DNA from: an uncultured Candidatus Saccharibacteria bacterium
GTDB taxonomy: Bacteria; Patescibacteriota; Saccharimonadia; Saccharimonadales; Saccharimonadaceae
Assembly: GCA_964545515.1 (NCBI GenBank)
Contig: CAZJFK010000001.1
Coordinates: 48,544-112,543, forward strand
DNA length: 64,000 nucleotides
Direction of reading: 5' to 3'
In this document: positions 10,990-47,747 of the stretch, piece by piece
Layout: every line of letters starts with the position of its first letter
How positions within the stretch are numbered: position 1 is the stretch's first letter
Made by a program: the position numbers and the translations under genes
Notes under the pieces: generated by a model
What the model was told of the DNA's origin: nothing
Databases searched by the model: none
What the model saw: the letters and a program-made list of their open reading frames with translations, nothing else

Positions 10990-11018
10990 TTGACTTTTTA
11001 TAATTCTTATGCTAGTAT
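10990..11018 (+). promoter_or_regulatory. Sigma-70-type promoter of the acidic three-gene operon
   Basis: TTGACT (10990..10995), 17-nt spacer, TAGTAT (11013..11018). Confidence 0.55.
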
Positions 11019-11047
11019 GAATAACATAAACAAGGTCCACCACACCT

Positions 11048-35894: not shown

Positions 35895-36830
35895 TTATAT
35901 CTGACCACCCGTATATAGCGCTACTATCATAATTGCTAGCACCGTTAAGCCCGAGGCTTTGTATAACGCCTGGTGGTATCGCCAAGATTGGCGCACTGGT
36001 TGCGGTAGTTTTTTGCGATTAATATACGTCACGAGCGACACTACGGCTGCAAATAATACCAATATAACCGAACCAAGTACCGCCGGTGTCATACTCTGTA
36101 ACGCTAAGCCGAATTGCGACATAAAACTCATATTAGCACCGACAATCGGAGCCTCGGTAATAGGCGTGGGCGTCAGACTAACGCCAGCAACAACTGGAGC
36201 TGGCCGTGATCCATACATGGCCACTATCAGTGTCGTGGGCTCACCGTCGAGTACTCCATCTACCACAGCAAAGCCTACGTCAGTGTAGTGTTTGTTCAAA
36301 ATATTTGCCCGGTGCTTGGGCGAGGCCATCCATGCGGCTAGCGTGGAATTGGCCGATGAAAAGTTTTTGGCCAAATTTTCACCTGCATAGTCATAATCAT
36401 AGCCTGCTTTGCTAAACCATACCCAAGGAGTGACGCCACTAGGTGACACGTGAGCCCAATATTGGTGATTAAACATATCGTGAGCTTTCATGGCGGCGGC
36501 TTTGGATAGAGCAGTATTGGAAACTAACGGTTTGTAACCATTGCCAGCTCGCTGAGCATTGGTGTCATCTAGCAGGTGAGTAGTACTAATCGGCTGCTGA
36601 ACACCCAAAACCGACCCACTATGGAGCCAATTAGAGCCAAATATCAACGCTAGAACCACTAATATAAGTAACGCCAAGCCATACCATCGCACTAAATGTG
36701 GACGATAATTATTCTTTTTGTGCGGAACAACAGCCATCTTAACGTGGCGGCGCATATGCTTACGGGTAATCGCCGCTTTTTTGCGGACAGCTACTGGCTT
36801 TTTGATTGATTTCTTTTTGGTATTTGACAT
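35895..36830 (-). CDS. CAP/SCP (PR-1-like, YkwD-type) domain protein with TM segments
   Basis: YWAHVSPSG...YAGENLAKNF...AWMASPKHRANIL is the CAP signature. An N-terminal basic region plus TM, and a C-terminal hydrophobic region. Confidence 0.82.
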   Translation of the reverse strand: MSNTKKKSIKKPVAVRKKAAITRKHMRRHVKMAVVPHKKNNYRPHLVRWYGLALLILVVLALIFGSNWLHSGSVLGVQQPISTTHLLDDTNAQRAGNGYKPLVSNTALSKAAAMKAHDMFNHQYWAHVSPSGVTPWVWFSKAGYDYDYAGENLAKNFSSANSTLAAWMASPKHRANILNKHYTDVGFAVVDGVLDGEPTTLIVAMYGSRPAPVVAGVSLTPTPITEAPIVGANMSFMSQFGLALQSMTPAVLGSVILVLFAAVVSLVTYINRKKLPQPVRQSWRYHQALYKASGLTVLAIMIVALYTGGQI

Positions 36831-36874: not shown

Positions 36875-36900
36875 AAGCGAGAGGTGTATCACCTCTCGCT
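36875..36900 (-). terminator. Intrinsic terminator after the giant surface-protein gene
   Basis: AAGCGAGAGGTG-tat-CACCTCTCGCTT, followed by TTTATTT on the minus strand. Confidence 0.8.
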
Positions 36901-36936
36901 TATTTTGCGTGTTAGTTTGTAGGAGCGGTCAGACTC

Positions 36937-39900
36937 TTATACGTTTGCTCGGCTAGCTTTTAGCTTGCGGCGAGTGAATTCTTCGACTGCAATTACTACG
37001 ATAATCATAGGAATCCAGTAGTACCAGCAGACGCCTAGGAATTTGAAGCAACCATCAGTTTTGTGTGTTGCTGCACCAGCAACCTTGCTTTCTTTGGCAG
37101 TAGAACCGCCGTCATCATCTGATACGCTACCGGCATCGTCGGTAGCACCCTGCACATCACCATCGTCGACAGCTACATTGCTAAACCCATTGTTATCACC
37201 ATCTGAATCACCGGAATTAGAACCACCGTTATCCTGATTACCGTCGTCGTTGTTGTCAACAACTGGTTTTGTGTATGTGAAACTAAATGTCTTGGTAGTC
37301 ACATTGCCAGATCGGTCAGTGGCAGTTAGCGTAAACTTGTAGTCGCCCTCAACCGTTACAGTAAACAGTGGATTAAGCGCGCTTGGGTCGCTAACTACAT
37401 TGCTGTCGATATCAGGATTAGCGCTATCGCCTACCCATACGTAAGTGTTACCTGTTTGACTAGGGTCACCGTCTTCATCAGTCAGGCTTGGCTGAATAGT
37501 ACCAGCGCCAGTTACTACGCCAGTTTCATCACCAGTGATATTTGGACCAGTGTTGTCGATAGTAAAGCTGATTACCTTGGTAGAATTTGCGTCTTTGTTA
37601 CCATTATTACCACCTAGGGCGCTAGCTTCGTCACGAGCTTCAAGTTTGACAGTATATAGACCATCACCGTCAAGGGTAAATAACTCTTGGTCGCTAAACG
37701 TAGTTTGGTTATTTACCTGGCGTGGTGATACTACGGATGTAGTAATGTCAGTACCATCCTTGGTAACTGTTACATAGTAATGGAACACGTTATCATCTTG
37801 GATACTAGCTTTGATGTTTACAGGTCCTTGTAGGGTCTGTCCGTCTAGTGACGAACCAAGAGTCACAACAGGTGCCGTTGAGTCATATACCATGTACATC
37901 CAGTCGCTCCACTCACTTACGTTACCGGCTGCGTCTACGGCTTGTACGCGAAATGCGTCAGTACGATCTGTTGGTGGTAACCAGTTTTTGATTGTGCTAT
38001 CAACAGATGCGTCAGTACCGCTAATGGTAGTATGGTAGCCGCCAAGTGATTCGTAGTTGTAGTGATCGACGACTTCGCTGTTGCCATTTACATCAAGTGT
38101 TACAGGATTCCACTGTGGATACACAGCCTGGCGCTTGATAAGCACTGGTATAGAGCTTAGTGCGTAGGTGTGATTGTCGTTTACTGCAAACAGTTTCAAA
38201 CCATCTGGTTGTGCAGGATTAGTGTTGTCGATAGTCAAGGTAAATGGACCAGCTTCATTGCCAGCTGCATCGTATGCGTAGATCTTGTAAGTACCCTCAC
38301 CTAGCCAGCTTAGACCCTTGTAATTTTTGCCTGGCACAACGTTTGTCCACTCAGTTACAAACGTACCGTCTTCTTTGGTAACTTTTATCTTTGAGATATG
38401 ATCATCAGTTGCTTCAATTTCGGGTTTTTGCGCACTGCTAGCTGTCGCGCCGTCATTCAGATAGGTACCCGTCCTGTTGTCGGTATAGTTTCGATTAATC
38501 TCTACCTTAAGTACAGGAGCATCGTTGTCTATCGCGAATGTGCGAACAGCAGTAGCGGCAGTATGTCCAACGAGGTCTTTTGAACCAACCTTTAGTGTAT
38601 ATGCACCGTTTGGTAAGCCAGCTAAATCACAAGTAGTCGACCAGCTAGTTCCAGATACATTGTTGGTCTTCCATAAACAAGTATTGTTTGCAGGATGTTC
38701 ACCATTAGGACCAGTCAGGTGTACTACTACCGTGCTTAGATCTGCAGCATCTATAGCCTCTATAGTTACGGAAGTATTATTGTTAACTACGGCACCATTT
38801 GTAGATGGATTAGTTATCTTGACTACAGACTCTTCGTTATCAAGAGTGAATTTATAGGCATTTGTACTAGACTTACCAAAGCCACCGTCGGCTAGGTAGT
38901 AGTTAGAATCCTTATTACTTAGTGCGTCAACCAGCCTAAAGTACAAACTGATATCACTATAAGTCTTATTGGCAAAGAAACTAGGTACGTAGCTTGCGCT
39001 ACTAGTGTCGGTACGATTAGTTAGATCGATATGTGCCATGTATTTATTAGTTACAGCATCTACAAGCTCTACCTTAGTCCAGCCAGTTGCTGGCGGACCT
39101 GCGAATCCAGGGATACGGAAACCAATTTCAGATCCAACTAGTTTCAATGGCTCATCGGTAGTAAACGTTACGTCTAACTTCCCGCCATTTAATAGTGAGC
39201 TGGTATAGTTTACTCCGTTGTCCGTGATTATATTACTCAGAGTAACGTTTGTAGCCACTGGAGCAGTATTGTCAATTGATACGCTCTTGAACAAAGGAGT
39301 GTTGTGGTTCAACACACCATCTGCACCTTGCGCCAATATACAGTAGCTGCCGTCCAGAGAGCTCGTATCAAGTGTTGCCGTATAATGACCGTCCACTAGT
39401 GTGCCATTTACGGTATATGCGCTCGATAGTGCCGGAAGATTATTCTTACACTCACCAGAGCTATTCTGGTCTGCTAGCCAAAACTTAACACCTGCTACGC
39501 CACTAGCAACGTCGTTCACAATTGGATCATCGGCATCGACAGATATTTGCAAAGTCTTCGATACTAAGCTTGGCGCAACTAAGTTCGTCAGTACTGGTTT
39601 TTTGCCATCAACATGTAATTCTTGGTTATCAATGCGATAATAGTTTCCGATGTTATCGTATACACGGACAGCCAGTGCATAAACGCTGCCGTCTTGGACA
39701 TCGTTTACGTTACTACAAAGATCCTCAACATTGAAAGTTTTAGTAAGTGTGTTACCTACGAAATTAGCGTTAGTCCAGCCATTACATTCGTTCTTCTGAC
39801 TAAATTTACCGTTTGATTCTTTATTTAACCTAAATACAATCCATTTAACATTATCAACACCGCTACCAATACCATCATCAGGATTAGACACGGTGAATTT

Positions 39901-41121
39901 GACGTTATCACCGGGTCGTACATAACGAACACCGTCAATAAGCTTACCGCCAGTGACTGTTAAACTTGCAGTGGGTGCAGTACGGTCAACCATAAAGCTG
40001 TCGCTAGAACTAGTAGTAGTATTGCCGGCGTAATCAGTAAAGACCGCGATGAACTTATGTGTTCCATCTGATAATCCATCCCAAAGTGTCTGGTTATTCG
40101 TATTCTTTGTATCAAAATTCTTGTGATCGCTTGTTAGTGTCCACACGAGATTCTCTGGGGTTACTGAATCTATGTATACAGACTTAGTCGTCCCAACTTC
40201 AGATGTAATTGGACGGACGTGGAAGCCCTGATCAGTACCATAAACAGTCAGAGGCTGCAGCTGCCATGTGACAGTAGGAGCAGTGCTATCGATAGTAAAC
40301 TTCCAAGCATCACTCCATGGTCCTACATTACCAGAGGCATCAGTATATCGAACCTTCCAATAGTAATCACCATCCTCTAGGTCGTTGCCAGGAACTGGAG
40401 TTGAACTACCGACCCTACCGCTACCGTTGTAATTAGGAACGGTCCATACGTAACCGCCATCAGTCCAAACCTCATCTTTATGCTCTGCCTTAGTGACACC
40501 GTATTCAAATGTCACTGGACTAGCATCAGATGGTGCAGTCCAAGAAAAGCCCATATCCCTCAGCGTGCCCATGTTGAGAACGCTACCGTCAGTAGGACTT
40601 GGATTAGTGGCCTGACCGGGAGCAGTCGTGTCACTTGTTACAAGATTAACCGTCTCGTTGAGAACGCGCTCACCCTCTGTGGTGTTGATAGTGGCAGACA
40701 AGTTGATAGGAAAAGTTCCAACCGTATCTGATTTCAAGTAGAATGATCCGTCTACTTTATCCAAAAATGAAGAGTTAACGGTCTTAGACGAGTCCCAATT
40801 TGTCGAATCCGTCGAAACCTCAGCCCCACCAGTAGCCGTAGCTGTAATTGCAGCACTACCTAAACTTACGTGAAAATCATTCCACCCACCAAACAATGAT
40901 TTAAACTCTACAAATGTATATAGTGAGCCGACGCCGCTACCAGCTTCCGTATGAACGACACTAGCCGATGGCGTTAGTTGATATGTAGTAAGCGGCAATG
41001 CATTTGCTGTTTGTGCTGACACCAGTGGTGCTAATGAGCTTACTGCCAATACTGCCGACATAAAGCCGAGCGTGCTACGCTTAAATATATTTGAAATTCC
41101 CTTTGTCAGTCTTAAAGACAT
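36937..41121 (-). CDS. Giant (~1394 aa) secreted Ig-like-repeat surface protein with acidic linker and C-terminal TM anchor
   Basis: Start set at ATG 41121 (MSLRLTKGISNIFKRSTLGFMSAVLAVSSLAPLVSAQTANA, a signal peptide) with SD AAGGGAGAG. There are at least 10 domain boundaries marked by D-(N/S/R)-T-(A/G/N)-P (IDSTAPTV, VDRTAPTA, IDNTAPVA, IDNDAPVL, IDNTNPAQ, YDSTAPVV, IDNTGPNI). A D/N/G/S-rich linker is followed by WYYWIPMIIVVIAV and a basic tail. Confidence 0.85.
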   Translation of the reverse strand: MSLRLTKGISNIFKRSTLGFMSAVLAVSSLAPLVSAQTANALPLTTYQLTPSASVVHTEAGSGVGSLYTFVEFKSLFGGWNDFHVSLGSAAITATATGGAEVSTDSTNWDSSKTVNSSFLDKVDGSFYLKSDTVGTFPINLSATINTTEGERVLNETVNLVTSDTTAPGQATNPSPTDGSVLNMGTLRDMGFSWTAPSDASPVTFEYGVTKAEHKDEVWTDGGYVWTVPNYNGSGRVGSSTPVPGNDLEDGDYYWKVRYTDASGNVGPWSDAWKFTIDSTAPTVTWQLQPLTVYGTDQGFHVRPITSEVGTTKSVYIDSVTPENLVWTLTSDHKNFDTKNTNNQTLWDGLSDGTHKFIAVFTDYAGNTTTSSSDSFMVDRTAPTASLTVTGGKLIDGVRYVRPGDNVKFTVSNPDDGIGSGVDNVKWIVFRLNKESNGKFSQKNECNGWTNANFVGNTLTKTFNVEDLCSNVNDVQDGSVYALAVRVYDNIGNYYRIDNQELHVDGKKPVLTNLVAPSLVSKTLQISVDADDPIVNDVASGVAGVKFWLADQNSSGECKNNLPALSSAYTVNGTLVDGHYTATLDTSSLDGSYCILAQGADGVLNHNTPLFKSVSIDNTAPVATNVTLSNIITDNGVNYTSSLLNGGKLDVTFTTDEPLKLVGSEIGFRIPGFAGPPATGWTKVELVDAVTNKYMAHIDLTNRTDTSSASYVPSFFANKTYSDISLYFRLVDALSNKDSNYYLADGGFGKSSTNAYKFTLDNEESVVKITNPSTNGAVVNNNTSVTIEAIDAADLSTVVVHLTGPNGEHPANNTCLWKTNNVSGTSWSTTCDLAGLPNGAYTLKVGSKDLVGHTAATAVRTFAIDNDAPVLKVEINRNYTDNRTGTYLNDGATASSAQKPEIEATDDHISKIKVTKEDGTFVTEWTNVVPGKNYKGLSWLGEGTYKIYAYDAAGNEAGPFTLTIDNTNPAQPDGLKLFAVNDNHTYALSSIPVLIKRQAVYPQWNPVTLDVNGNSEVVDHYNYESLGGYHTTISGTDASVDSTIKNWLPPTDRTDAFRVQAVDAAGNVSEWSDWMYMVYDSTAPVVTLGSSLDGQTLQGPVNIKASIQDDNVFHYYVTVTKDGTDITTSVVSPRQVNNQTTFSDQELFTLDGDGLYTVKLEARDEASALGGNNGNKDANSTKVISFTIDNTGPNITGDETGVVTGAGTIQPSLTDEDGDPSQTGNTYVWVGDSANPDIDSNVVSDPSALNPLFTVTVEGDYKFTLTATDRSGNVTTKTFSFTYTKPVVDNNDDGNQDNGGSNSGDSDGDNNGFSNVAVDDGDVQGATDDAGSVSDDDGGSTAKESKVAGAATHKTDGCFKFLGVCWYYWIPMIIVVIAVEEFTRRKLKASRANV

Positions 41122-41185
41122 ATAAAACACTCTCTCCCTTACAGCACAGCCCACTCTGCACAACACACACTTTGTTATTGATACT

Positions 41186-41214
41186 ATACTACCACATATT
41201 GACAAATTTGTAAA
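41186..41214 (-). promoter_or_regulatory. Promoter of the giant surface-protein gene
   Basis: The minus strand reads TTTACA (41214..41209), 17 nt, TGG-TAGTAT (41191..41186). About 60-nt leader. Confidence 0.5.
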
Positions 41215-43764: not shown

Positions 43765-43845
43765 ATTTGTGTTTTATTAGTTTATGTGTTCATAATAGCA
43801 TAAGAATCATAAAATGTCAATAATCAGGTATGGTACACTAGTGTT

Positions 43846-44849: not shown

Positions 44850-47747
44850 CTAAGCCTTTTGCAGGTAAATAACTAGCTCAGTATCCTCGACCTTGGCGGT
44901 AGTATTGTAACTATATTCGAGCTCCGTTATCTCACTAGCCAGTGTCTCGGTGGCTATAACTTCACTGTATTCCTCGATAGCCTGCGCTAGCTCACTATCA
45001 TCGGTGGAGAGCGACAAAGATATGCGATCATCGACGTTGAGCCCTGCGCTCTTGCGCGCGGCCTGCACGTGACGCACGACTTCGCGCATCAGACCTTCGC
45101 GCCTAAGCTCTGGCGTGATTTCAAAATCAAGTGAGACCTCGTCACTACCGGATTTCACCTCTTTGACATTGAGCTCTTCTCGGAGTATATCCTCAAAATC
45201 AAACGTCTCACCCAATTTCGGCACAGTGACGCTCGCTAACGGCTGGCGAATCTTGACTCTCTCGCGAGCACGCAAACTAAGTGCTTGATTGACATATTCG
45301 CGTACCGCTTCCATCTCGTTTAGAGTAGCTTCGTCGACACTATAATTAGCTGGCCAATTTAGTAGATGTACCGATTCGTTACCACCACCTAAATTCTGAT
45401 ACAATTCCTCAGACAAAAATGGCGTAAACGGCGCCAACAGGACCGACAGTTTGAGTAGTACATAGTGCAGAGTACGATATGCGTCAGATTTATCGCCATC
45501 GTCTTCGCTTTTCCAGAAACGGCGGCGCGAGCGACGCACGAACCAATTACTCGCATCCTCGATAAAAGGCAAGAACTCGCTCAGTGCTACTGGTATATTA
45601 TATTCATCCATATGCTTAGTCACGTGCTGATTTAGCTGATGAAGACGTGATACAACCCATTTATCAAGCGGGTTAGTCAGGTCATCAGGATTGAGCGTAA
45701 ACGGCTTAGTGGGGTCAAATTCCCAACCATCGACTTCGGCATACATAGTAAAGAAATCGTACATATTCCAAATCATCGTCAGTTTACGCGCTACATCACC
45801 TACATCTTTGTCCTGCAGGGCAAAATCTTCGCCATTTAATAGCGGGCTACTGAGTAGCAAGAAACGCAAAGAATCGGCGCTAAATTTGTCCATCAACTCA
45901 TTTGGATCAGTATAGTTGCCGTAGCTTTTGCTCATCTTGCGACCATCGTTACCAGCTACGATACCGGTAGTTACGACATTTTTGAACGGAGACTCACCAA
46001 ACAAACCGACACTCACTACGTGCATATAGTAGAACCACGCGCGCACCTGACCAATGTATTCAACCACGAAATCACCTGGGAAATTGGCCTCAAATTTATC
46101 TTTGTTTTCGAATGGATAATGGAATTGCGCAAATGGCATACTGCCACTCTCAAACCAACCATCGAGAACCTTGTCGATGCGTTTGTAATGCACGCCGTCG
46201 CGGTCAAATTCGATATCATCCACCCATGGGCGATGATAATCATCAAGCTCTACGCCACTTAGCTCTTTCAACTCAGCGTAGCTACCGACAACTATTTGCT
46301 GTTTGTTGCCATCGTCGTCTACACCCTCCCATACTGGCATGGCCGTCGCCCAAAATCTGTCACGGCTGAGATTCCAATCTGGCGCTTGTTCGATATTTTT
46401 CTCGAAACGTCCATGTTTGAGATGCTCGGGGAACCAGTTAATCTGCTCATCGTTTTTGCCAAGCATCAATTCTTTTTGCCCCTGTACATCGAAAAACCAG
46501 CTAGGGTGTGCACGATACATGAGGCGCGTCCCACAGCGGTGACAGTGCGGGTAACTGTGGCGAATATACTCAATCTTCCAGACAATGCCACGTTCATGTA
46601 GAGCCTTGGCTATCGTCTTGTTGATTTCCCAGACGTTTTCACCCTCCCAGTCGGTCTGATCATATAGACCGTTTTCATCAATGACATGAACGACTGGTAT
46701 TTTGTTTGCCTTGGCTAGCTCAAAGTCCTCCTCGCCATAGGCTGGCGCAATATGAACTATCCCAGTACCGCTATCTAGGGTCACATAATCCGCATGCCAA
46801 ACTTGATGTGCGTTTTCGCCACGATTCTCGCCCATAAGTGGCTCGTAATGTAGTCCTACGAGGCGAGAGCCATCCATTTCTTCGAGCAATTTATATTCTA
46901 AGACATTGTGCTTTTCATCGGTCAGAACTTTTTCGAGTAAATCCCTGGCTATGATAAATTGCTCACCAGCGACTTCAACGCGAGAATATACCTCGTCTTT
47001 GTTGACAGCAAGCGCCGTGTTCGCGGGGAGCGTCCATGGTGTTGTGGTCCAAGCTAGCATATAAACGGGGTCGTTTGATTCCGTCTCACCATAATCAGTA
47101 AGCTTGAATTTAGTATAGACACTGGGATCAGTAACATCCTGATACGCACCAGCGTCCATGGTGACTTCGGCTTTACTGAGCGGAGTTGCGTCACGCGTAC
47201 AATACATGAGTACTCGCTCACCTTCGTAAATCTTGCCTTTGCCATGAAGCTCCTTGAAAGCCCACCAGATAGACTCCATGTATTCTTTGTCCATAGTCTT
47301 GTAGGCATGATCCATGTCGACCCAGCGACCAATACGGTCAATCGTATCATTCCAGAGACTACTCGTCTGTACCATGTTGTCACGAGCGGTCGTAATGTAT
47401 TCTTCGAGACTGATTTTCGTACCGATATCACGACGGTCTTTGATACCTAGCTTTTTCTCGGTGAAAACCTCAGCCGGTAGACCATGGCAATCCCAGCCCC
47501 ATACGCGCTCTACGCGTTTGCCCTGCATAGTCTGATAGCGAGGTACGGCGTCTTTGACGATACTACTCAGTAGCGTACCATGATGTGGCACGCCAGTGAT
47601 GAACGGTGGGCCATCGTAAAATACGTAAGCATTATCAACTGGTCGCTGCTCAACTGATTTTTCAAACGTACCGGCGGTCTTCCAGCGTTTCACCCAATCT
47701 TTTTCATATTCTAGCGCCCGACGACGTGAATTTGCTTTAAATTTCAT
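44850..47747 (-). CDS. ileS: Isoleucyl-tRNA synthetase (type 2-like N-terminus)
   Basis: YVFYDGPPFITGVPHHGTLL (HIGH variant), CP1 editing domain, RKMSKSYGN (KMSKS). SD GAGGAG lies 7 nt upstream, inside the preceding micro-ORF. Confidence 0.96.
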   Translation of the reverse strand: MKFKANSRRRALEYEKDWVKRWKTAGTFEKSVEQRPVDNAYVFYDGPPFITGVPHHGTLLSSIVKDAVPRYQTMQGKRVERVWGWDCHGLPAEVFTEKKLGIKDRRDIGTKISLEEYITTARDNMVQTSSLWNDTIDRIGRWVDMDHAYKTMDKEYMESIWWAFKELHGKGKIYEGERVLMYCTRDATPLSKAEVTMDAGAYQDVTDPSVYTKFKLTDYGETESNDPVYMLAWTTTPWTLPANTALAVNKDEVYSRVEVAGEQFIIARDLLEKVLTDEKHNVLEYKLLEEMDGSRLVGLHYEPLMGENRGENAHQVWHADYVTLDSGTGIVHIAPAYGEEDFELAKANKIPVVHVIDENGLYDQTDWEGENVWEINKTIAKALHERGIVWKIEYIRHSYPHCHRCGTRLMYRAHPSWFFDVQGQKELMLGKNDEQINWFPEHLKHGRFEKNIEQAPDWNLSRDRFWATAMPVWEGVDDDGNKQQIVVGSYAELKELSGVELDDYHRPWVDDIEFDRDGVHYKRIDKVLDGWFESGSMPFAQFHYPFENKDKFEANFPGDFVVEYIGQVRAWFYYMHVVSVGLFGESPFKNVVTTGIVAGNDGRKMSKSYGNYTDPNELMDKFSADSLRFLLLSSPLLNGEDFALQDKDVGDVARKLTMIWNMYDFFTMYAEVDGWEFDPTKPFTLNPDDLTNPLDKWVVSRLHQLNQHVTKHMDEYNIPVALSEFLPFIEDASNWFVRRSRRRFWKSEDDGDKSDAYRTLHYVLLKLSVLLAPFTPFLSEELYQNLGGGNESVHLLNWPANYSVDEATLNEMEAVREYVNQALSLRARERVKIRQPLASVTVPKLGETFDFEDILREELNVKEVKSGSDEVSLDFEITPELRREGLMREVVRHVQAARKSAGLNVDDRISLSLSTDDSELAQAIEEYSEVIATETLASEITELEYSYNTTAKVEDTELVIYLQKA

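Follow-up and report, generated by a model that had tools for sequence, protein, structure and literature searches.

This text concerns a gene for a long surface protein in a 64-kb stretch of DNA (hereafter the window) from an uncultured Candidatus Saccharibacteria bacterium (contig CAZJFK010000001.1). We describe the layout of the gene and its product, in which a signal peptide, eleven immunoglobulin-like (Ig-like) modules, an acidic stalk, and a C-terminal membrane anchor follow one another, and we trace the locus through related genomes. The architecture is well supported. Among relatives, the ectodomain is replaced as a cassette that is bounded upstream by a conserved region and at the 3' end by conserved anchor-coding sequence; this replacement occurs at or near the species level. 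The best reading of the protein, to which we assign a probability of roughly 0.6, is a membrane-anchored, strain-variable, adhesin-like fibril. Throughout, P numbers denote proteins and L numbers denote loci of relatives.

The gene and the layout of its product

The largest open reading frame of the window lies on the minus strand and covers 36937..41205, or 1422 amino acids (aa) when counted from a TTG. The TTG is inside a promoter-like site and the orthologue P0036 opens at the ATG at 41121 (MSL...); this ATG is therefore the real start, and the protein has 1394 aa. Nucleotide identity with the P0036 locus (L014) extends as far as 41112. An earlier note on this DNA, made from the letters alone, was right to call this the largest gene, at about 1394 aa; the end that it gave, 41214, is the first base of a -35 hexamer and is not coding. 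The same note credited the gene with its own promoter and terminator. A 12-bp hairpin with a T-run agrees with the latter, and a promoter-like TTTACA-17-TG-TAGTAT agrees with the former by its position and its extended -10, the count of promoter-like sites across the region being not above chance. The -10 type of this site, TGnTAGTAT, recurs in a 32-nt promoter-like element, TTGACTTTTTATAATTCTTATGCTAGTATGAA, which is present twice in the window with 91% identity (10990-11021 on the plus strand, and inverted at 43789-43820).

A protein in an NCBI-derived collection, P0001, is identical to the window protein, and the word-indexed search that found it returned no other full-length homologue. The named relatives are Candidatus Saccharibacteria or Saccharimonadales, which fits the epibiont origin that the earlier note had suggested.

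Hydrophobic 19-mers occur at two places only in the protein, residues 16-36 and 1358-1382. The first is the core of a signal peptide with a basic n-region and A-N-A|LP at its end, as expected from the cut at AQTANA/LP that had been proposed; past A-N-A, sequence conservation with P0004 and P0002 resumes at LP[LF]T.Y. At least two types of signal peptide are conserved in the family: '...ALVAQPMYGLVASQVANA', which is the type of P0036, the nearest positional orthologue, and '...FVLAVSTLTAAVPFILS..A.A'. The window protein is unlike both types and nearest to P0037. The second hydrophobic stretch is followed by TRRKLKASR, and so the single C-terminal transmembrane helix with a basic tail is found where it had been placed. 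Cysteine pairs lie each inside one module (446/469, 558/594, 815/831) or inside the tail (1358/1365); together with a VKOR gene in the window, the paired cysteines within modules fit an extracytoplasmic protein. The coordinates of all parts are collected in Table 1.

Table 1. Parts of the gene, its signals, and two neighbouring genes (window coordinates; pLDDT, predicted local distance difference test score of the AlphaFold2 model)
Feature	Coordinates	Strand	Details
Promoter-like site, TTTACA-17-TG-TAGTAT (TG extended -10)	41214..41186	-	~65 nt upstream of ATG
Shine-Dalgarno-like AAGGGAGAGAG	41130..41140	-	8 nt before ATG; read from sequence
Coding sequence	36937..41121	-	1394 aa + stop codon (36937-36939); intact
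Signal peptide, aa 1-41	40999..41121	-	4 K/R in residues 1-15; 18-residue hydrophobic core (16-36); A-N-A before LP
Module 1, aa 42-168, membrane-distal tip (predicted)	40618..40998	-	no Pfam/PDB match; pLDDT <50
Module 2, aa 169-282, FN3/Ig-like, W-rich C-terminal motif	40276..40617	-	Big_13 1.8e-05; Ig_Rha78A_N 5.1e-05; pLDDT 50-90
Module 3, aa 283-383, Ig-like (WQLQP...HVRPITSEVGT...DYAGN...IDRTAP)	39973..40275	-	pLDDT 86-97
Module 4, aa 384-509, beta-sandwich, Cys446/Cys469	39595..39972	-	pLDDT 72-88
Module 5, aa 510-621, Ig-like, Cys558/Cys594	39259..39594	-	pLDDT 71-95; 66% identical to P0036
Module 6, aa 622-764, 143-aa beta module	38830..39258	-	pLDDT 87-97; no Pfam or PDB sequence match
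Module 7, aa 765-869, Big_7/Big_13 Ig-like, Cys815/Cys831	38515..38829	-	Big_7 6.1e-06, 27.2 bits vs cut-off 24.1; pLDDT 72-90
Module 8, aa 870-969, Ig-like	38215..38514	-	Big_13 0.0072; AlphaFold2 model partly confident; Z = 6.7 vs module 10
Module 9, aa 970-1084, FN3-like by similarity to module 2	37870..38214	-	pLDDT <50; 59% identical to P0038
Module 10, aa 1085-1193, Ig-like	37543..37869	-	pLDDT 50-87
Module 11, aa 1194-1287, PKD/Big_13-like	37261..37542	-	begins conserved 3' end; Big_13 1.8e-04; weak InlK_D3, PKD
Acidic D/N/G/S stalk, aa 1288-1352	37066..37260	-	two short-motif copies, DVQGATD and KVAGAAT; 91% identical to P0036
Anchor cassette, aa 1353-1394	36940..37065	-	GC-FKFLGV-CWYYW-IP motif; transmembrane helix ~1358-1379; basic tail TRRKLKASR; 95% identical to P0036
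Intrinsic terminator	36875..36901	-	perfect 12-bp stem (7 G-C pairs), 3-nt loop, T-run; 35 nt past stop
Membrane-anchored CAP-domain protein	35895-36830	-	directly downstream of the large gene
IleRS	44850-47747	-	71% identical to L014

Modules, stalk, and C-terminal anchor

The ectodomain is divided into 11 modules of 94-143 aa each by a boundary motif that is strict in seven places (D-[NSR]-[TD]-[AGN]-P at 278, 379, 617, 865, 965, 1080, and 1189) and degenerate in four (SDTTAP at 164, VDGKKP at 505, LDNEES at 760, and YTKPV at 1283). The earlier note had counted at least ten beta-rich repeats with a recurring boundary motif; the number and the motif stand, and the term repeat does not. Repeat searches of the window DNA detected no DNA repeats or tandem repeats within the gene, and detectable similarity links only a few pairs of modules (2-9, 2-3, 2-7, 3-7, and 8-10), with a Z of 10.6 for module 2 against module 9. 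Modules 1, 4, 5, and 6 are unique within the protein. The modules are thus heterogeneous and not true repeats.

These modules are Ig-like beta-sandwiches, and their fold class is established by three kinds of evidence. The whole protein matches Pfam Big_13 (PF19077; 6.8e-17, 62.3 bits against a gathering cut-off of 27, in 4 stretches) and Big_3_3 (PF13750; 1.5e-11, 44.6 bits against 27, in 2 stretches); Big_7 also scores above its cut-off, and modules 2 and 3 scored singly reach 25.6-26.6 bits, just below the Pfam cut-off. AlphaFold2, for which fragments of homologues were aligned segment by segment, returned all-beta models for aa 38-520 (mean pLDDT 68) and aa 505-1294 (mean 73.5). The models are confident for modules 3-8, 10, and 11; modules 3, 5, and 6 reach 86-97, modules 4, 7, 10, and 11 are moderate to good, and modules 1 and 9 stay below 50. 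Foldseek against the PDB gave a probability of 1.0 to tandem Ig-like, FN3, and MG arrays. The structures matched were the BIg domains of SiiE, GhpA, the MpIBP extender, bacterial alpha-2-macroglobulin MG arrays, the Deinococcus HPI S-layer, and RbmA, with 2yn5, 6xi3, and 9fly/9flu as the best matches by PDB identifier. The Ig-like assignment of the earlier note, for which domain models and AlphaFold had been suggested as checks, is in this way upheld. Its cadherin-like alternative is not: the IDNTAP boundary resembles the cadherin motif DxNDNAP, and this resemblance is the only link, no cadherin model matching the whole protein or its modules in Pfam at E up to 1. Nothing meaningful came from searches of PDB sequences, whether the query was the whole protein or a profile of module 1, 3, or 6. 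The PHROG match, phrog_11157, is a family without known function.

Between the modules and the membrane lies the acidic stalk. Its predicted D/N/G/S character is plain, at 64% of residues 1288-1357 with a net charge of -14. In stalks upstream of tryptophan-rich (W-rich) tails, a short motif, [VIL]-[LKAQE]-G-x-[STQAD]-[TDS], is present in 1-3 copies; we defined it post hoc, after inspection of the data. It was found in 26 of 33 tail-bearing proteins, within ~110 aa before the tail, at a density of 1.07 per 100 aa in stalks versus 0.013 in protein bodies (~80-fold). In relatives it takes the forms VLGAxT, VKGAS, and VEGxST.

The window protein has the tail sequence GCFKFLGVCWYYWIPMIIVVIAVEEFTRRK. 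This tail fits a W-rich anchor class (tails A and B) that is proposed here and is not a curated family: G-x-x-W-Y-[WY]-[WY] opens the C-terminal hydrophobic helix, and a basic cluster follows. We sorted the C-termini among 59 family proteins. Tail A ([FL]GL[AG]WYWW, helix, WW, RRR) accounts for 21 of them, plus 3 that are A-like. Tail B (GC-x5-G-x-C-W-Y-[WY]-[WY]-(x)-x-P, helix, basic residues), which adds a cysteine pair, C-x6-C-W, accounts for 13, including the window protein. The remainder are FILTED-like with two hydrophobic segments (10), LPXTG-like (4; e.g., LPNTG in P0081 and LASTG in P0069 and P0013), or other or truncated (8). In the W-rich tails, the G, W, and Y are invariant and the R nearly so.

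Neither tail A nor tail B has a match to a Pfam or NCBIfam model. NCBIfam recognizes FILTED (NF052597) in P0014, P0093, and P0040 and LPXTG_anchor in P0081, and the W-rich cassette occupies the position of these curated anchors in homologous proteins. A 43-column profile of the tail, which is too short and hydrophobic for significance, had no match at E <= 1e-3 among 5.8 billion proteins. A literature search on the tail motif, the 'FILTED domain', and Patescibacteria sorting signals found nothing relevant. No sortase was detected in the window by a TLxTC scan or by tblastn with the L001 sortase, and no processing enzyme linked to the tail is shared among the contexts of P0023, P0015, and P0045. 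The L001 sortase gene (L001:8457-9101) lies two genes upstream of the protein that occupies the corresponding slot there, itself of tail A rather than LPXTG. An unprocessed type I transmembrane anchor with aromatic belts at the interfaces is the simplest mechanism.

Ectodomain replacement at a conserved slot

The gene occupies a slot in a conserved order of genes: IleRS, purine DNA glycosylase, further genes, Zincin_1, (dCMP deaminase), the gene itself, CAP, NTP_transferase, L21, ParA, ParB, S26, LCP, further genes, and HtrA. Seven loci have a protein in the slot, and these proteins vary in length and tail. Tail B is found in the window (P0001, 1394 aa) and in L014 (P0036, 1170 aa). Tail A is found in L015 (P0037, 870 aa), L001 (P0002, 867 aa), L023 (P0004, 847 aa), L003 (unnamed, 1255 aa), and L004 (unnamed, at least 558 aa). 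In L005, L006, and L008 the slot is empty. The earlier note had held that absence from close relatives of the same lifestyle would speak against its reading; absence is indeed seen in these three, and the reading is not refuted by it, as they are more distant relatives and family members occur at other loci.

Two comparisons show how the slot changes. Between the window and L014, the flanking proteins are 95-98% identical and the DNA 83-86%. DNA identity halts 3 codons past the ATG and returns at about codon 1150 (position 37672), with only a 69% patch over module 6 between these limits. The proteins are 46% identical overall across aa 747-1393, although the stalk and tail within this range reach 91% and 95%. 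Between L023 and L015, the flanks are 97.4-98.9% identical in nucleotides, and ~2.5 kb of ectodomain-coding DNA (L023:5933-8455 and L015:9860-12470) is without similarity. Here identity ends ~120 nt upstream of the start codon and returns in the last ~48 codons, that is, in the tail.

Two mechanisms of variation were considered and rejected. A diversity-generating retroelement would have left a template/variable repeat pair; none was found among direct or inverted repeats of at least 30 nt, and the only matches that involve the gene are of 30-38 nt at 74-77% identity, which is chance level. Tandem-repeat variation is ruled out, as the gene has no repeats.

The ectodomain is also a mosaic with respect to its relatives, and the best match differs from part to part (blastp). 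The signal peptide is nearest to that of the positional orthologue P0037 (76%), module 1 to P0004 (76%), module 2 to P0002 (70%), module 3 to P0003 (80%), module 6 to P0037 (74%), module 9 to P0038 (59%), and the stalk and tail to P0036. Module order is permuted between the window protein and P0036. Outside P0004, module 1 is shared only with P0002 (44%) and P0104 (39%). Module 6 is conserved at 50-74% identity in 9 homologues. The 76% identity of module 1 to P0004 exceeds that of the flanking genes between the same lineages (CAP ~53%, NTP_transferase 66%), which argues for lateral exchange of modules. No tblastn match was found among 50,697 phage records.

Module 3 is a marker of the family. 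It is present in single copy, at 58-80% identity, in 26 of 45 homologues. An exhaustive HMMER search with its profile returned 5106 representatives at E <= 1e-3; full-length matches were confined to proteins of ~465-1600 aa (and one 140-aa fragment), and 13 of these had not been in the earlier set. In giant proteins of 2-8 thousand aa, the match covers no more than the terminal D-x-AGN...IDxTxP segment and recurs 10-40 times per protein. The boundary motif thus characterizes a very large Ig-like superfamily in general, and module 3 is the specific family marker. Module 3 also occurs in LPXTG-type-anchored proteins with Ala/Glu/Pro/Val-rich linkers (P0081, P0069, P0080, and P0013). The locus of P0081 (L020) has 47% GC, and regulatory and metabolic genes are more frequent in its surroundings.

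The neighbours of the gene had been taken as an envelope neighbourhood. Pfam confirms the proteins on which this view was built, namely CAP, NTP_transferase, the S26 signal peptidase (LepB), LCP, and HtrA-like proteins, in addition to VKOR, Zincin_1, and dCMP deaminase. The stretch also holds ParAB, L21, IleRS, and FtsZ, which mark it as conserved core genome, and so the neighbourhood says little on function. The CAP protein is kept where the slot is empty in L005 and L008, and a CAP protein also follows the family member P0045 in another context (BIG-CAP-CYTH-NYN; L022:11892-12899). IleRS is considerably less similar to its L014 counterpart than are its neighbours, at 85-98% (NTP_transferase 97.8%, CAP 95.2%), and this mosaic divergence may reflect recombination or a replaced IleRS allele. 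A motif, ATTGTAACAGATAT, is common to ~35019 and ~54356, with a shorter copy, ATTGTAACAGA, at ~21968. Across the window, no tRNA genes and no Rfam families at gathering score were found.

Proposed function and comparison with known systems

We propose the following path for the protein. After Sec export, an S26-type signal peptidase, such as the one encoded nearby, would cleave after A41. The Trp/Tyr-rich C-terminal helix would remain in the cytoplasmic membrane with the basic tail inside, and the disordered acidic stalk of ~65 residues would cross the wall zone. The eleven Ig-/FN3-/PKD-like modules would then project as a fibril of ~40 nm (our estimate, not a computed value), with module 1 at the tip. 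The ectodomain, a mosaic, would have been recombined from a pool of modules common to Saccharibacteria surface proteins, and it is exchanged at the slot as a cassette between the upstream region and the anchor-coding 3' end. Close strains therefore bear unlike ectodomains that are joined to one conserved anchor. Such an ectodomain most likely serves in contact with another surface, through the binding of a host-cell or matrix ligand, which would contribute to host or partner specificity. The case for adhesion is one of analogy with BIg adhesins, combined with the strain-level variability and with reports on Saccharibacteria (PMC10633639).

Several observations weigh against the adhesin-like fibril. 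No ligand-binding domain was identified among the modules, and modules 1 and 9, with a pLDDT below 50, match no Pfam, PDB, or PHROG family of known function. The Foldseek TM-scores (template modelling scores) are low, at 0.1-0.5, as expected for flexible multidomain rods; they support the fold class alone and not homology to a particular adhesin. The signal peptide and the topology were assigned by rules and not by a predictor. The three empty slots indicate that not every relative requires the protein at this locus. In addition, escape from phages or host defences could explain the hypervariability just as well as ligand switching.

The tail and the variability can each be read in other ways. 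The W-rich cassette could be a true sorting signal, as in LPXTG/sortase and PEP-CTERM/exosortase systems: an enzyme would remove the helix and join the protein covalently to the wall or to a glycopolymer, with the V-x-G-(A/T)-(S/T) motifs of the stalk as processing or attachment sites. Such a signal would account for the three-part layout of motif, hydrophobic helix, and basic cluster, for the conservation of the tail across proteins with otherwise unrelated ectodomains, for its placement where homologues have a curated FILTED or LPXTG anchor, and for the enrichment of the stalk motif beside it; the sortase close to the slot in L001 and the LCP ligase in the window also speak for it. However, no enzyme is consistently linked to the tail, either in the window or in the other contexts examined. 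The WYWW falls inside the helix or opens it and, in tail A, a second WW lies at its inner end, which has the look of an aromatic-belt transmembrane anchor that would require no processing. The stalk motif is post hoc, and the tail profile is too short for a database survey. We consider a sorting signal unlikely. A wider proposal would treat the slot as a recombination-driven 'specificity cassette' locus, in which swaps fed by competence alter the host or surface that is recognized, and would treat the W-rich tail and the V-x-G-(A/T)-(S/T) motifs together as an undescribed, lineage-specific sorting or anchoring signal parallel to LPXTG and FILTED; we offer it tentatively, as a possibility well short of even odds.

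A mainly structural envelope component, whether S-layer-like or a spacer or fibril coat, would also present a long rod on a wall-spanning stalk. The Foldseek matches to the Deinococcus HPI S-layer and to the matrix scaffold RbmA, the position beside envelope-biogenesis genes (LCP, S26, HtrA, and CAP), and the presence of the gene in single copy, between a strong promoter-like site and a terminator, are all in keeping with this. Lattice proteins are usually conserved within a species. Here, by contrast, strains with 97-99% identity in the flanks differ by a replaced ectodomain, some relatives have nothing in the slot, and neither SLH nor any other domain known from S-layer anchoring or lattices is present, so that a structural role appears improbable. 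Should the protein be only a structural fibril, it would be an ordinary Ig-like surface protein. Alternatively, the variability may arise from escape: phages would use the protein as a receptor or host defences would target it, cassette swaps would evade recognition, and its primary function could be any that needs surface exposure. Wholesale replacement of an ectodomain on a conserved anchor is typical of negative frequency-dependent selection, and hosts are reported to detect Saccharibacteria and to mount defences against them (PMC13622651). However, none of the phage records is similar to the protein, and escape is compatible with an adhesin rather than exclusive of it; as a separate explanation it is very doubtful. 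A sorting signal is likewise compatible with the adhesin-like fibril.

To our knowledge, the only factors so far implicated in host recognition and attachment by Saccharibacteria are type IV pili and a few putative adhesins. The present results offer three handles on this process. The conserved slot is easily located, and its surface-exposed product differs even where the flanks are 97-99% identical. The anchor cassette, absent from Pfam and NCBIfam, could become a hidden Markov model that lists the surface proteome of these organisms. Module 3, conserved and single-copy, occurs with four anchor types. Natural competence now makes some Saccharibacteria genetically tractable (PMC10633639), and so swaps of slot alleles could directly test a role in host range.

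Among known systems, the nearest in lineage come from the same phylum and the same cellular compartment. Epibiotic growth of Saccharibacteria is reported to depend on several adhesin-like proteins of the envelope, and in the naturally competent Southlakia epibionticum the proposed adhesins are envelope proteins that are essential and contain FN3, VCBS, and dockerin domains (PMC10633639). Two of its proteins, SEML1_0890 (FN3) and SEML1_0891 (VCBS), resemble the window protein, by description, in their beta-sandwich ectodomains and proposed host contact. In a related bacterium of the candidate phyla radiation, C-terminal transmembrane helices anchor extracellular Ig-like pilus proteins (10.64898/2026.03.03.709456). 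These Pam pilus accessory proteins of Mycosynbacter are alike, again by description, in ectodomain fold, proposed host contact, and C-terminal anchor (10.64898/2026.03.03.709456); they differ in that they assemble into pili by donor-strand exchange, whereas the window protein would form a fibril from a single polypeptide.

The FILTED proteins belong to the same Saccharibacteria family and have modules in common with the window protein; P0014 and P0093, for example, contain module 3, and P0039 and P0040 contain module 6. FILTED stands in place of the W-rich tail as a membrane-associated C-terminal end; it is a domain of ~110 aa with two hydrophobic segments, unlike the single helix and W-rich motif of the window tail, and neither this tail nor the whole protein matches its model (membership threshold 40 bits). 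Sortase-anchored LPXTG proteins of the MSCRAMM type have the same succession of signal peptide, Ig-like modules, low-complexity wall-spanning stalk, and motif with helix and basic tail, and relatives that bear module 3 do have LPXTG anchors (P0081 matches TIGR01167). The window protein differs from them in having GC-x5-G-x-CWYYW inside the helix, no sortase in the window, and no LPXTG-like motif. The absence of LPxTG had already been remarked on in the earlier note, and we find no LP.T[GAS] in the last 60 aa and no match to the NCBIfam LPXTG_anchor model. S-layer proteins are linked to the window protein by the fold-level match to Deinococcus HPI alone, as no SLH or S-layer model matches it in Pfam or NCBIfam.

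The closest likeness in fold is to the BIg adhesins SiiE, the MpIBP extender, and GhpA. They too are strings of ~100-aa Ig-like modules that form a fibril with Asp-rich boundaries between modules, and they gave the best Foldseek matches. They are Gram-negative proteins with type I or other secretion, near-identical tandem repeats, and C-terminal RTX or secretion signals; the window protein has instead a Sec signal peptide, heterogeneous modules, and a C-terminal transmembrane anchor. A giant adhesin of the RTX or type I-secreted kind was rejected for the window protein, given its Sec signal and transmembrane helix, the lack of tandem DNA repeats, and no match to an RTX model in Pfam or NCBIfam. 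The bacterial Ig-like surface fibril is, then, a well-known kind of protein; what stands out here is the uncatalogued W-rich anchor cassette and the way in which closely related genomes, at one conserved slot, have the ectodomain replaced like a cassette.

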